A DNA stretch of 64,000 nt, taken from Octopus sinensis. Its lineage: Eukaryota. Below are positions 2,844-45,030 of this stretch, one piece after another. Each line of letters starts with the position of its first letter. The stretch's first letter is position 1. The stretch covers positions 124,001 to 188,000 of the forward strand of contig NC_043006.1 of assembly GCF_006345805.1 (NCBI RefSeq), read 5' to 3'. The position numbers were made by a program, and so were the translations under genes. A model generated the notes under the pieces. It saw only the letters and a program-made list of their open reading frames with translations, made no database searches and was not told the origin of the DNA.

Positions 2844-2923
2844 CTCTCGACATATGTTTCGAAGACACATTTTTCATTCCAAAGGAATGAAGGGTGCATT
2901 ATGCAGTCTTCTCATCAGGAAAG
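2844..2923 (-). ncRNA. Type-I hammerhead ribozyme motif (family HH1) in a Penelope-like terminal repeat
   Basis: Minus strand: ctttc CTGATGA gaagac...gtcttc GAAA catatg TC gagag; intact core, 6-bp stem II, palindromic stem III ACATATGT, GUC site. Confidence 0.85.
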
Positions 2924-3063
2924 AAAGGGACCTCTCTCGACACAACAAGACAAACAAAAATTTCGATGACTGCCTACATGGTAAACAAAACGATAATGAG
3001 TTGTTCAATATTCATATATATATATTATAATATATATATATATATAATATATATATTAACGCA

Positions 3064-3447
3064 TGCTTACCAACCACATGGTTCTGGTTCAGTCCCACTT
3101 CGTGGAACCTTGGGCAAGTGTCTTCTACTATAGCCTCGGGCCGACCAAAGCCTTGTGAGTGGATTTGGTAGATGGAAACTGAGAGAAGTCTGTCGTATAC
3201 ATGTATATATATGTTTACGTGTGTGTATGTGTTTGTGTCTGTGTCTGTCCCCCCAACATCGCTTGACAACCGACTCTGGTGTGTTTACGTCCCCGTAACT
3301 TAGTGGTTCGGCAAAAGAGACTGATAGAATAAGTACTAGGCTTCCAAAGAATAAGTCCTGGGGTCGATTTGGTCGACTAAAGGTGGTGCTCCAGCATGGC
3401 GGCAGTCAGATGACTGAAACAAGTAAAAGTGTAAAAGAGTAAAGAGT
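3064..3447 (+). mobile_element. SINE family A, slightly 5'-truncated
   Basis: Colinear with 22692-23090. Confidence 0.9.
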
Positions 3448-3951
3448 CCACACACATATATATAGTCGTAAGACACCCGCTGTTTTTGTCCTGTTATTAC
3501 TATTATTGTTTTTTGTATTTATATTCGTGTGGCATTGTCCGTTTTTCTGTCCGTTTCGTATACATTCGATCCTTCTTCCAAGAAATCTAATGCTCGTAGC
3601 TTAGTTTTTCCTTGGGGCTGGCCGGATCGGAGCGATCTTAAGATTAATCAGCCGAAATTGCGAGGATGATCCGGTTCTTGACTGAAGATTGAAGGCTTTG
3701 AATGTCCCGTCCGTGTTTTTTGTATCGTCTTCTAAATGTTTTACGTTCTTGTCCCAGTTTGTATTTTTCTACATATATATATATATATATATATATATTT
3801 ATTGAAATGGATAAATGAATTATCTTGTTACGGATTATCCCCCTGACGTCAACGCACATTGAGAGACAGTTTGTGCCATTCCATGGGCTCCTAAGGAGCG
3901 TTTTCTTCGAATTGCTTGCTGCGCATTTGTTTGGAGATTTAAATTCCTGGA

Positions 3952-4034
3952 TTTTCCTGAAGAGAAAGCTGCAAAATGGTCTCCTTATTCATCCGAATTT
4001 GGAAATTTGCGGCCTTTGAAACATGTGTAGAAAG
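3952..4034 (+). ncRNA. Type-I hammerhead ribozyme motif (diverged HH1)
   Basis: ttttc CTGAAGA gaaagctgcaaa...tttgcggccttt GAAA catgtg TA gaaag; downstream aataaaaggaatt...ctccatttctttc resembles the HH1 repeat; host repeat 3800-4090 lies between (TA)n tracts. Confidence 0.8.
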
Positions 4035-4090
4035 AATAAAAGGAATTCTGTAGAATCTTCGTTCAGCTCCATTTCTTTCCTTCACTAAAT

Positions 4091-4430
4091 ATATATATAT
4101 ATAATATATTATATATATATATATATATATATATATATATATTAGTGTGTGTGTGTGTGTGTGTGTGTGTGTGTGTGTGTTGGTGTGTGTGTGTGTGTTA
4201 TATGTACGTGCGTATGTTTGTATGCATGCATACATCACATATGTATGTACACACACATATATATATCTATATAATTATGTATGTATATATGTATGTATAT
4301 ATATACACATACATACAAACATATGTATGTATGTGTATGTGTGTGTGTGTGTGTGTGTGGTGTGTGTGTGTGTGTGTGTGTGTGTGTGTGTGTGTGCATA
4401 CATACCAACATACATATACATAAATATATA
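4091..4430. repeat. (TA)n/(TG)n compound microsatellite
   Basis: Seen directly. Confidence 0.95.
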
Positions 4431-5774
4431 TCAGAAGCGACACCAAGTCATCAGCGTCACTCGGGCTCATCACAGATTTCACATAAAACATGCCTGCTCG
4501 AAGAATTTCACGTTTCTCCGCAATATTTCTAACCCAAAATGGCGAGTCGTGTTCTGTCCTCACCTTCGAAACACGCTGGAGTTAAACTAGGGACAGCTGA
4601 TGAAGGGGATTTTTCCTTGTGTAGTTTGTCTAGTACTCTGTTTTTCTTTGTAAAAAAGGTTCGTTCCATGCTTGTTTTTTACGTTTTCGTTCTCGTTGAG
4701 TTGTGCGTCTATTTGTGGTGTCCTGTACTCACTTATATATTTATATATGCATGTATATATACATGTAGATGTAGGTACGTACATATATGTATGTATGTAT
4801 GTATGCATATATTTTATTATTACATTATTGTATGACTGGGCCTTTCGGGCGATTCGCGTCGATTCGATTCGATTCGTTCCGTTTCGTTTCGTTTCTTCTT
4901 CTTCTCCCAGTACAGTTTATATATATATAGCACTATGTCTTTCTCCTTTTTTAAGTCAAGAGTAAAAATAAGGCAACCCTGCAATACACAACTGATCTTT
5001 ACACACAGACGCACAGAATAACAACAATCAAATAACGACAGCGGAGTGCACAACAGATATCAGGCGAATTCCGACTGTACTCTTGACAAGAGATGCCAGT
5101 TGGTCTTTTACACGTACCAGGATCGTTCGTATTAGCCCGAGTTGCTGGATAATTTTTCGTTCCTTTAAGAATATTGTAGAATGGAAACTTTTCATAGGCT
5201 GGAATTTAAATCCTGTTCTCTATAGAAATTTATTGATTCTAGAAAACATTGAATATGAATTACTTTTAATTTTTACAATTATAGATAACGACTCGGTCTG
5301 TAACTTCTGAGCCCGAGTCAGGCGCGTGTGAAAAATGTCGAGAGAACGTCTGTTACGAATGATATTTTTTTGATACAGGGTACCTCCAAGACGACCGCCA
5401 CACGCTGAACGAAAACAAACGGCGATCCGGCTCAATAAAAGGTGCCCGAGTTATTGGCTGAAATTAAATCAGCTTCCAAATACATGTTCACTTTACTAGA
5501 TTTATACTCGGAATAAACCCGAATTGCCTTAGTGCCAGAGTCGCACATATGTATATATATGTATAAATATATCTCATATATATATGTATATTATATATAT
5601 ATAGATATAGATATATATATATATATATAGGCGTGTGTGTGTGTGTGTGTGTGTTTACATATATGTAGATGTGGTGTTGTGTATATATATATATATATAT
5701 ATATATATATATATATATTAACGTGGCGATTTTTTTCCTCCGTCTTCCCTTCTCTGGATCTTTCCTTTTCCTAT

Positions 5775-5809
5775 GTTTCTGACGAAGATCTCCGCTCGAA
5801 ACGTTAAAC
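5775..5809 (+). ncRNA. Minimal hammerhead motif (family HH2)
   Basis: gttt CTGACGA a gatc-tcc-gctc GAAA cg TT aaac; host repeat 5720-5895 sits between (TA)n tracts and recurs at 44900-45100 (-) and 22403-22555 (+). Confidence 0.7.
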
Positions 5810-42638: not shown

Positions 42639-42789
42639 TATATATATATATATATATATATATATATATATATATATATATATATTATATATATATATAC
42701 ATATTTTGTATGTCATGTATTTAATATACTTTATACATTGATCTGTCTAATTTTCTTATATATATATATATCTTCCATATTCTATTTTT

Positions 42790-43225
42790 TATTTGATCCA
42801 GTCATCAGACTGAGGCCGAGCTGGGGCAACACCTTGAAGACTTTTTAGTTGAATGAATCGACGCCAGAACTTATCTTTTTTCTATATTCCTTTAAGCCTA
42901 GTACTTATTCCATCAGAACTATTTCGCAGAACCGCTAAGTTACGGGGATGTAAACACACCAACACCGGTGTGGGACAAACACAAATACACACGCACGCAC
43001 GCACGCACCACCACCCCACACACAGACACACGCGTATATATATATATATATATATATATATATATGACAGGCTTCTTTAAGTTTCCATTTACCAAATCCA
43101 CTCACAAGATTTTGGTCGGCTCAAAGCTATAGAAGAAGACACTCGTCCAAAAGTACCACGCAGTAAGATTGAACCCGGAACCATATGGCTGGGAAGCGAG
43201 TTTCTTACCACACAGTCATGCCTGC
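42790..43225 (-). mobile_element. SINE family A, diverged
   Basis: Reverse complement of family A. Confidence 0.8.
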
Positions 43226-43783
43226 CCTTGCATATGTACATGTATATGGTGGAAGTCAATTCATGACCGAGTGAGATCGCTTCTTTAACACAGTAAGCCC
43301 GTGCAAAACGCTCCGAGAGTTCAAGAAGTTCCTGTGCGTGGATTTGTTTTGAGTGGAAAAAGTATTGCACAGCACTGGAACCACTTTTCAGCGCAATCAA
43401 CTATGGCACCATTACCACAACAGGGGTTGAAAGGACCAGAAACTAACTGCACATCAGGAGGGATTTGTTTTTTTTTTTTGTTTTTTTTTCGTACGAATTT
43501 TTGTACGAGCTTGCCTTGTCCTAACGAGAATTAGGGGCCCTTCACGTCCAATGGTCCTCAACGGGACCTACTACTCCAGGTCAGGGTAGACCTGAGAGCA
43601 ATAGGGGTTAAGAAGTTGTTCCATACTTCTCAAAATCCTGGAATTCCTGAATCAGGGCACCACTACCGGATGCAGTTTAAATTCATATTCGGGATGTGTG
43701 TGTATGCATGTAGTTATGTGTGTGCTTGTTATGCGTGCACGCGCGCGTGTTTGTGTGTGTAAATATGCATATAGGCATATGTA

Positions 43784-44348
43784 TTGGGTTCTCCGGAAAG
43801 TTCGTGCCGATTTATAGTAGCTTACCTTTCGACTTATTTTAGAACATGGTTGAGGCCATAAAATAGGATTTGACTACACCTCTATTTAGAGCACATTTTA
43901 AGCTATCTTTTCGTGGAAGAAGGTTTATGTTCCTAGAACCTGTGTTAATTCTGTAACCCTTTAAAATGGAAGATAAGAAAGTTCATTTTAAACACTTGAT
44001 GCTTTGGGAACCAGACAAAAATTGCTGCAGCTCGGCTTGGATGTGTTACCTGACCCTCCATATTCACCAGATATTGCTCCTTCGGATTTCCATTAATTCA
44101 GGTCTCTGCAGAAAAGTATTAATGGTAAAAATAACAATTTCTTGGATGACGTAAAATGATATCTTGATGAATTCTTTGCCATGAAACCACCTCAATTCTG
44201 GGAAGAGGGTATTTTCAAGTTAAAAGAAAGATGGAGACACATTGTGCAACAAAATGGTTCATATTTGGTTGATTAAAAATGTAATGCCAAGTATTTATTG
44301 ACCTTTTCTTTCCTTTAAAAATCGGCACGAACTTTCCGGACAACCCAA
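43784..44348 (+). mobile_element. Internally deleted mariner with intact 30-bp TIRs and TA TSD
   Basis: TA|ttgggttctccggaaagttcgtgccgattt ... aaatcggcacgaactttccggacaacccaa|TA (1 mismatch); MEDKKVHFKHLMLWE fused to RQKLLQLGLDVLPDPPYSPDIAPSDFH...ERWRHIVQQNGSY. Confidence 0.95.
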
Positions 44349-44355
44349 TATATGA

Positions 44356-44693
44356 AGGTGTATGGCTCAGTGGTTAGAGCATCGGGCTCATAATCATGAG
44401 GTAGTAAGTTCGATTCCCGAACCGGGCTGTATATTGTGTTCTTGAACAAGACACTTTATTTCACGTTCCTCCAGCTCAGCTATAGAAATGAGTTGCGAGG
44501 TCACTGATGCCAAGCTGCATCGGCCCCTTTGCCTTTGTTTTGGATAATATTGGTGGCATGGAGAGGGGAGGCGGGTATGCATGGGCGACTACTGGTCTTC
44601 CTTAAATAACCTTGCCCGGAATTATACCAAGGAGAGGAACTTTCAAGGTGCAATTTTATGGTCATTCATGACCGAAGGGGGTCTTTACCTTTT
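44356..44693 (+). mobile_element. SINE family E (tRNA head, middle M2, distinct tail)
   Basis: tggctcagtggttagagc (A box), agttcgattccc (B box), tgtgttcttgaacaagacactttatttcacg; ends ctttaccttt. Confidence 0.8.
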
Positions 44694-44995
44694 ATGCTAA
44701 TGTATGTATGTATATATTGTATATATTATGTATGTATATATATGTATATATACATATATATATATATATATATATATATATATATATATATATATATTAT
44801 ATATATATATATATAATATATATATATGTATGTATGTATGTATGTATGTATGTATGTTGTATGTATGTATGTATGTATATATATGTATGTATATATAGTT
44901 AATGCAAACATGAACAAAGAGAAAACAGAACAACGCGAGGACGTGGAACAAGTATAGTGTTACTGGACGCTTAGGAAAAGAAAGAAAGAAAGAGG

Positions 44996-45030
44996 ATTTA
45001 ACGTTTCGAGCGGAGCTCTTCGTCAGAAAC
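44996..45030 (-). ncRNA. Minimal hammerhead motif (family HH2), intact
   Basis: Minus strand gttt CTGACGA a gagc-tcc-gctc GAAA cg TT aaat; host repeat 44900-45100 between TA/TATG arrays. Confidence 0.75.

Follow-up and report, generated by a model that had tools for sequence, protein, structure and literature searches.

Hammerhead ribozyme repeats at (TA)n microsatellites in Octopus sinensis as candidate footprints of Penelope-like elements

Hammerhead ribozymes on dispersed repeats are described from the terminal repeats of Penelope-like elements (PLEs) and from short non-coding retrozymes. Here we compare with both systems a set of hammerheads in a 64-kb stretch of the Octopus sinensis genome (contig NC_043006.1, positions 124,001 to 188,000; hereafter the window, numbered from its first letter). 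A preliminary description, made from the letters and a list of open reading frames (ORFs), had read these motifs as products of PLEs or of their retrozyme-like derivatives.

In PLE terminal repeats (pLTRs), PMC4209133 describes minimal hammerheads with a palindromic stem III and low activity as dimers, present as thousands of motifs per genome, either in opposite-strand pairs 100-700 bp apart or as scattered singles. Two PLE clades, Hydra and Naiad, are biased to (TA)n insertion, and nearly all Hydra-clade elements target (TA)n; Octopus holds Naiads and a Hydra element, Hydra-1_Obim coming from Octopus bimaculoides (PMC8557442). Hydra hammerheads in file S2 of that source have a palindromic stem III of 3-4 bp with loops of 1-3 nt, often with an extra base after A9 and before G12, and a few plant PLE rows of the file have long stem II regions, as do some of our families. 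PLEs also form inverted 5′-truncated copies with a tail of 30-40 bp, one such copy being noted for Penelope-13_HM (PMC8557442), and Penelope elements of Adineta carry an inverted 5′-truncated copy with the tail at one end (PMC3846280). For the Anolis Poseidon element PAc, the protein cleaves AT-rich DNA in vitro on both strands and extends them, two internal start sites delimit the tail, and the hammerhead is protein-assisted and dispensable for insertion in vitro (PMC11167929).

Retrozymes that lack long terminal repeats (non-LTR retrozymes) are units of 220-390 nt in coral, mussel and axolotl, the last with up to 120,000 copies (PMC7229834). They have been treated as non-autonomous PLE derivatives in 35 species including vertebrates, insects and a coral, and occur as dispersed monomers in Xenopus (bioRxiv 10.64898/2026.07.22.740005). 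Among cephalopods, PMC6962438 reports 235 Rfam hammerheads in the whole giant squid assembly, and PMC13282606 counts 31 Penelope-like families as recently active in Octopus vulgaris, in passages that make no mention of ribozymes. Searches of the literature on hammerheads in octopus or cephalopods gave PMC8557442 and the squid genome as the only relevant sources and no description of the families below; the supplement and repeat library of PMC13282606, Repbase or Dfam may hold them as unclassified SINEs or PLEs.

Hammerhead families and their anatomy

The window has a GC content of ~38% and consists of simple repeats for 16% of its length. A type-I descriptor (in order: stem I, CUGANGA, stem II, GAAA, stem III, UH, stem I′) matches it 11 times, while dinucleotide shuffles give means of 0.08, 0.30 and 0.12 with a maximum of two (three sets of 60 runs), so that the comparison with shuffled sequence proposed in the preliminary description comes out clearly in favour of real motifs. 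A second descriptor that requires a near-palindromic stem III gives 10 matches against a mean of 0.31 and a maximum of three in 200 shuffles. The total is 12 complete or near-complete hammerheads, or 16 loci with truncated members included, all within 2.8-45.1 kb. The descriptor scan finds no hammerhead in the last 19 kb (45100-64000), where microsatellites are also present; motif density is therefore uneven along the window.

Masked self-BLAST of the window, together with alignments, separates at least six mutually unrelated families, where at least four had been proposed. Family A has five loci and a stem II region of 51-54 nt. Family B comprises three loci with a minimal hammerhead, a common 5′ boundary and a length of ~170 nt. 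Three loci with a common stem III and a stem II region of 52-97 nt form family C, which is maybe more than one family. Family E has two loci, and families D, F and G have one each. The loci are as follows (strand in brackets; foldbacks are given without one).

2793-3013 (-): solo copy of family A with a (TA)n tract on either side; hammerhead 2844-2923 complete, C3 2918, H17 2849, triplet GUC, stem II region 51 nt
3803-4088 (+): divergent copy of family A, flanked by (TA)n tracts; hammerhead 3952-4034 with GUA, C3 3957 and a stem II region of 54 nt; left end similar to an inverted segment of the family A long 3′ end (25 nt, 88%, E 0.004)
5724-5893 (+): family B element of ~170 nt; minimal hammerhead 5775-5809, C3 5779, GUU
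6117-6390: family A head-to-head foldback (6117-6240) beginning approximately at the cleavage site, core absent; ~140-nt tail on the right arm; (TA)n at both ends
10668-11050: family C decayed foldback (10867-11035), stem III retained at 11001 but no first core box; left arm longer by ~200 nt; (ATAC)n at both ends
20462-20970: family A foldback; long arm (-) 20462 to ~20810 with hammerhead 20656-20736 and a 140-nt tail, short arm (+) 20810-20970 with hammerhead 20840-20919; (TA)n at both ends
21640-22128 (+): family G; complete hammerhead 21909-21970, C3 21914, AUC, with a stem II region of 29 nt; 21756-21800 is a short inverted arm and matches 22045-22097; ~115-nt tail; (TA)n at both ends
22409-22553 (+): family B decayed copy, C3 22458, stem III mutated; 5′ boundary as in the other two B copies
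23264-23981 (-): family E; partial tandem with a 458-nt period (23264-23371 = 23722-23828); complete hammerhead 23403-23461, C3 23456, AUA; inverted arm 23823-23981, which reaches (TA)n; the left end is cut off by a repeat resembling short interspersed nuclear elements (SINE-like)
32143-32272 (+): family C-type motif that lacks stem I but has a stem III palindrome, a stem II region of 97 nt and the two core boxes; duplicated in part at 31119-31231 (87%)
33601-33659 (-): family F; hammerhead complete, with a 6-bp stem I and a stem II region of 27 nt, C3 33653, AUC
33893-34301: family E-related foldback (33893-34214) without a core, its start being immediately 3′ of the cleavage site; right arm longer by ~90 nt; (TA)n at both ends
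37170-37425: family C foldback of two slightly decayed hammerheads, 37320-37401 (+) with C3 37325 and 37193-37275 (-) with C3 37270; the locus does not lie at a microsatellite
42030-42330: family A foldback (42184-42330) beginning inside stem II, first core box absent; ~150-nt tail on the left arm; (TA)n at both ends
42410-42638: family D foldback (42481-42638), perfect, whose two hammerheads are identical: 42514-42551 (-) and 42568-42605 (+), GUA, 2-bp stem II with a GCAA loop; left arm ~70 nt longer; (TA)n at both ends
44900-45083 (-): family B element; minimal hammerhead 44996-45030, C3 45026, GUU

Of the ten main positions first proposed, which mark the outer edge of stem I, eight retain the three stems and undamaged core boxes: 2844(-), 3952(+), 5775(+), 20656(-), 20840(+), 42514(-), 42568(+) and 44996(-), with one mismatch in the stem III palindrome at 3952 and one in stem II at 5775. 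The motif at 37320(+) is near-intact (stem I of 5 bp, closing stem II pair broken), and its partner arm at 37193(-) has an altered U4. The motif at 32153(+) has a palindromic stem III, a stem II region of 97 nt and the two core boxes but no stem I (at most two of five pairs), and is not among the descriptor matches. Three of the four sites called decayed (11000, 22446 and 37193) are indeed family members; the fourth, 30443, is a hairpin without either core box, and its status as a hammerhead was not confirmed. Beyond that list we found complete hammerheads with C3 at 21914(+), 23456(-) and 33653(-) and, at 6117-6240, 33893-34214 and 42184-42330, foldbacks of the families above that lack the core.

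The core boxes and an NUH triplet stand in type-I order in the 11 descriptor matches and in the motif with C3 at 37325, and the motif at 32157 has the boxes as well. Three helices surround the core in 11 motifs, nearly so in the motif with C3 at 37325, and not in the one at 32157 (32143-32272), which has no stem I. Stem III is a palindrome of 4-11 nt, with no more than one unpaired base in nine of the 11 descriptor matches, which bears out the self-complementary, loop-poor stem III first noted. The label minimal, in the sense of PMC4209133, is true just of family B. Computed energies of stem III are 0 to +4.9 kcal/mol for the lone hairpin and -4 to -14 kcal/mol for the two-copy duplex, family B being an exception (-1.7). 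Unrelated families share the hammerhead fold with different stem sequences. Within family A, the stem II pair 32-77 is A-U, G-C or G-U among copies, and G-C is commonest in public contigs: at position 20676 the contig majority gives G-C, the copy with C3 at 2918 has A-U, and the 20462-20970 locus has G-U.

Docking at TA tracts, foldbacks and tails

A TA or TATG tract lies within 110 nt downstream of the cleavage site in 11 of 18 arms, against 12-14% of random non-microsatellite positions, and within 250 nt in 14 of 18 arms, against 23-28%; in these counts the arms of a single locus are not independent. The arms without a near tract are the long arms, family F, the SINE-interrupted family E copy and the 37170-37425 foldback. 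The proposed docking at (TA)n or (TATG)n is thus upheld, as is the expected enrichment of (TA)n at insertion ends, seen both in the window arms and in family A contigs that end at TA.

An inverted arm is present at nine of the 16 loci, head to head every time. It had been suggested that the motifs lie mostly in such foldbacks, which is an overstatement for the ten main sites (five of them, at three of eight loci). In seven of the nine foldbacks the arms are unequal, one having an extra 70-200 nt, and both outer ends lie at a TA-type tract. The distance from cleavage site to short end is 34-64 nt in families A, C and D, and family A has the same tail of 140-150 nt at three loci. Most foldback arms differ by 1-16%. 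Family E combines a partial tandem (458-nt period) with an inverted arm; this is the textbook layout of a PLE, without space for an ORF. No array with two hammerheads in tandem occurs within the window.

Four of 24 listed public sequencing runs were aligned to the family A segment 20462-20812 (summed contig depths are not copy numbers). On these 351 nt we found 1893 contigs in DNA run X3, with a further 178 and 71 from a pair of runs whose RNA nature is a guess; the X3 count indicates that family A is large and mixed. Loose ends at (TA)n recur in at least 26 contigs at the long end (X3) and at least three at the short end (X12), and contig depth drops ~15-fold just upstream of the core. Among the joints listed in contigs none is a tandem joint, which is a weak test. 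Both arms of the 20462-20970 locus share two alleles (20656 and 20676) that are at <3% of depth in run X3, so that the arms come from one source or were later homogenised, and an origin of the arms from two random RNA molecules of the family is disfavoured. For identity 3′ of the cleavage site, pairs within and between loci were not distinguishable.

A family A circle of ~385 nt, in which the long end would rejoin the start of the copy with C3 at 2918, is unsupported: one of eight comparisons reached p 0.03, and no joint was found. The single match of the family A pattern in metagenome contigs lies inside a prokaryotic gene, lacks the stems and was dismissed as chance. Viral contigs gave no match to the pattern.

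Origin of the repeats

We read the loci as the footprints of several PLE families, namely as hammerhead-bearing 3′ terminal repeats inserted in (TA)n, with a probability of about 0.8. TA targeting, inverted head-to-head arms, tails, dimer-type stem III and PLE hammerheads are all known traits. Like Hydra-clade elements, these repeats have a (TA)n target and a type-I hammerhead tens of nucleotides from the 3′ end, and six of the stem III types, compared by eye, resemble the hammerheads of file S2 (PMC8557442). With regard to stem III and its flanking extra bases, families D and C are close to that file and families A, E, F and G are similar in style; family D is the closest in form and shares stem I and eight of nine stem III letters with Hydra-2_aMil. 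The differences are that stem II is ~10-25 nt in the Hydra clade and 51-97 nt in families A and C, that ORFs are present there and none is attached to the repeats here, and that a zero-loop stem III and, in families E, F and G, a U at 15.2 are found here. Since the (TA)n bias is common to Hydra and Naiad, it is by itself not diagnostic of Hydra.

The minimal hammerheads of PMC4209133 agree with ours in their scattered singles and opposite-strand pairs, their many families per genome, a palindromic stem III, the dimer model and an extra base between 9 and 10.1. Family B fits them directly; most families here have a longer stem III and a much longer stem II. With PAc and Adineta Penelope the window shares one-sided tails, head-to-head inverted terminal repeats and an AT-rich target, although the tail is 30-40 bp in the ORF start in those elements and 70-200 nt and non-coding here. 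As in non-LTR retrozymes, family E (458 nt) and family B (~170 nt) are short, AT-rich, non-coding units with a type-I hammerhead; retrozymes have head-to-tail arrays of at least two hammerheads and circular RNA, whereas here we see a tandem of 1.4 units, and head-to-head arms are common. Unmatched in the descriptions compared are a stem II of 51-97 nt, tails of 70-200 nt and a density of ~190 motifs per Mb.

By analogy with these systems, the enzyme, its clade, priming on two strands and cleavage are most likely those of PLEs. A GIY-YIG endonuclease and a reverse transcriptase would act in trans, or would have been lost by 5′ truncation, and the endonuclease would nick both strands of a (TA)n target. 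Downstream of the hammerhead the RNA would offer reverse transcription two internal start sites, separated by 70-200 nt; these would yield one short and one long arm, and the arms would join at truncation points mostly no more than ~60 nt from the ribozyme. As stem III is weak as a lone hairpin and strong as a two-copy duplex, cleavage would most likely be by a dimer in a tandem transcript or with the help of protein; it would trim or circularise the RNA and not be required for a given insertion. The driver was most likely a Hydra-clade element for families A, C, D, E, F and G and a Neptune- or Poseidon-like element for family B. We lean towards regarding family E, and probably B, as non-autonomous retrozyme-like units. 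The general absence of ORFs proposed in the preliminary description is shown for E alone and suggested for B; its PLE or retrozyme-like reading remains the best available and can be narrowed to the Hydra clade by stem III, while the reverse transcriptase and GIY-YIG endonuclease that it invoked were not found in the window frames scanned.

Several results weigh against this reading. In the 210 of 246 candidate window frames scanned, Pfam gave no reverse transcriptase or GIY-YIG domain and only weak unrelated matches (the 36 frames outside the scan are mostly SINE-like or simple-repeat), and PLE protein motifs matched three times in the six frames of the window, never near a hammerhead. The window does not contain the stem III motif of Hydra-1_Obim, and of six family-specific strings compared with the PMC8557442 supplement, four had no match and two had chance matches in unrelated entries; no family is therefore tied by sequence to a described element. 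The tails are 2-5 times longer than the published 30-40 bp, and the 37170-37425 foldback has no TA-type tract within 650 nt. In a calculation that ignores tertiary contacts and Mg2+, the monomer hammerhead fold has a probability of at most 1e-3 in eight of eight motifs, so that many copies may be inactive. The Rfam model Hammerhead_1 scores 20838-20921 at 17.4 bits, under its threshold of 34, and Rfam has no hammerhead match for families G or E. Covariation is thin, with one compensated pair among four family A window copies, and although the 37 listed substitution sites of family A all lie outside its core boxes, stem III and cleavage site, only ~2.7 were expected within the 25 positions of core and stem III, which makes this a weak test.

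The 144-codon frame of family E has no family match and ESM Atlas scores of at most 0.83, a low recognition. In an Rfam scan of the whole window there was no hammerhead among the 150 matches listed out of 347, and those listed were microsatellite-driven microRNA noise. The repeats work in the manner of a PLE terminal repeat; membership in PLEs, or in the Hydra clade, would require a partner ORF, which for Hydra would carry that clade's protein marks (RWK, DKT, a CxCX5C linker and no CCHH) and its place in the reverse transcriptase phylogeny.

A tentative alternative, which overlaps our reading and probably holds for some families, is that all the repeats are 5′-truncated ends of autonomous PLEs, short through an early stop of reverse transcription, as PMC4209133 takes most scattered motifs to be. 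The fall in family A depth upstream of the core, copies that begin at varied points, the lack of a listed tandem joint and a long end that rejoins the start in just one of eight comparisons are what such truncation would leave. It is harder to reconcile with the 458-nt period of family E, which has no room for an ORF of 2-3 kb, and with three family B copies that have one 5′ boundary; template jumping could yield E, however, three B copies are few, and neither observation proves non-autonomy. It is possible, if doubtful, that the families are instead classical non-LTR retrozymes, RNA circles of 170-460 nt produced from tandem arrays through hammerhead cleavage and ligation, whose scattered monomers and foldbacks are dead offspring. 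Unit sizes of 170, 458 and ~350 nt and a low GC content suit retrozymes of 220-390 nt (PMC7229834), Xenopus has dispersed monomers (bioRxiv 10.64898/2026.07.22.740005), and family A contigs occur in the two runs with 178 and 71. Yet the RNA nature of both runs is guessed, no circular junction was seen in contigs, and the window has head-to-head arms predominating and no tandem array of two hammerheads.

That the hammerheads are passengers, moved by a microsatellite-targeting non-LTR element with a restriction-like endonuclease or by a foldback mechanism at the DNA level, we consider highly improbable. Remnants at 35825-36109 and 61304-62304 that we take to be endonuclease-like, and a SINE-like foldback at 46661-46961, would speak for it, but the remnants adjoin trinucleotide tracts and not (TA)n, the hammerhead repeats have no terminal inverted repeats of the DNA-transposon type, and one-sided tails, partial tandems and type-I hammerheads such as theirs have been described for PLEs. 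The chance that the motifs are random matches or assembly artefacts at microsatellite edges is close to negligible. In a window so rich in simple repeats, an error of assembly or library preparation could account for the perfect palindrome of 158 nt at 42481-42638; against this explanation, the 180 shuffles for the first descriptor never exceeded two matches, most arms are not identical, and family A with both its ends recurs in independent public runs, so that this explanation is largely refuted. Among PLEs, Naiad is a less likely driver than the Hydra clade: it targets (TA)n and occurs in Octopus, but is published without canonical hammerheads and is old in cephalopods (PMC8557442).

Since the class is already known, the general picture of ribozymes and retroelements is unchanged by the loci described here. 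What stands out is the local density of ~190 motifs per Mb (12 in 64 kb, in one window chosen for its motifs, which gives no genome figure), against ~4 per Mb in axolotl (up to 120,000 in 28 Gb; PMC7229834). Rfam missed or under-scored three of three motifs tested, and cephalopod-type genomes may therefore be badly under-counted. As a speculation that we think unlikely to hold as a whole, the octopus genome, if the window is typical, might carry several hundred thousand hammerheads on undescribed ORF-less riders of Hydra-clade PLEs, most of them invisible to Rfam because their stem II is oversized. The foldbacks with a long and a short arm might then preserve, like fossils, the priming of two strands from a pair of internal start sites (70-200 nt apart), perhaps with two RNA units joined by stem III. 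How PLEs make inverted copies, and what part the hammerhead plays, is left open in PMC8557442 and PMC11167929. If two RNA units are indeed held by stem III, the PLE hammerhead would have a structural role, and thousands of natural copies would allow the unexplained inverted insertion of PLEs to be tested. For work on the PLE mechanism, short families whose two 3′ ends are fixed offer convenient substrates, both natural and in vitro, and hammerheads with a stem II of 50-97 nt and a palindromic stem III of 8-11 nt are easily assayed as natural dimers.

Neighbouring features

Several further structures lie near the hammerhead loci. The segment 31119-31231 is a 113-nt partial copy (87%) of the 32157 motif, flanked by a 17-nt direct repeat (31093-31109 and 31225-31241) that looks like a target-site duplication or a local duplication. 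Between these two family C-type copies is a 36-nt inverted repeat (31398-31435 and 32077-32113), its halves ~650 nt apart. The long hairpin at ~30445-30510, which has no hammerhead core, is accompanied by a 15-nt direct repeat 214 nt apart (30300-30540) and may be the terminus of a further short element of tandem type. The degenerate string 33478-33512(-) resembles a minimal hammerhead; it lies ~100 nt downstream of the motif of family F and has an 8-nt palindrome after GAA and a G at the cleavage position. A foldback at 41782-41986 has arms of 81 nt (76 of 81 identical) between TA and ACAT tracts; it has no core and no second copy in the window, and may be a core-less member of a further family.

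Other mobile elements are represented by the following features.

61304-61726, 61870-62304 and 35825-36109: frames that we take to be the restriction-like endonuclease end of a non-LTR retroelement
43779-44353 and 41215-41661: presumably mariner-like transposase remnants (no Pfam match at 0.01)
45-459, 3061-3441, 10157-10573, 22690-23095, 37890-38293, 49577-49955, 56120-56549 and 62917-63291: copies, among others, of a SINE-like family of ~400 nt
46661-46961 and 12909-13967: second SINE-like family of 110-200 nt

The three endonuclease-like frames have 272 relatives at E <= 1e-20, of which the named ones are from coral and the others are unnamed or 'uncharacterized'; 61304-61726 and 61870-62304 are a tandem duplicate between trinucleotide tracts. 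The remnant at 43779-44353 has terminal inverted repeats of 38 nt (43779-43816 and 44316-44353). The ~400-nt SINE-like family is abundant and contains an internal TA/TG microsatellite, and one of its copies breaks the family E tandem at 23264. The second SINE-like family is docked at (TTA)n, bears no hammerhead, and is arranged as tandem pairs and a 300-nt foldback.

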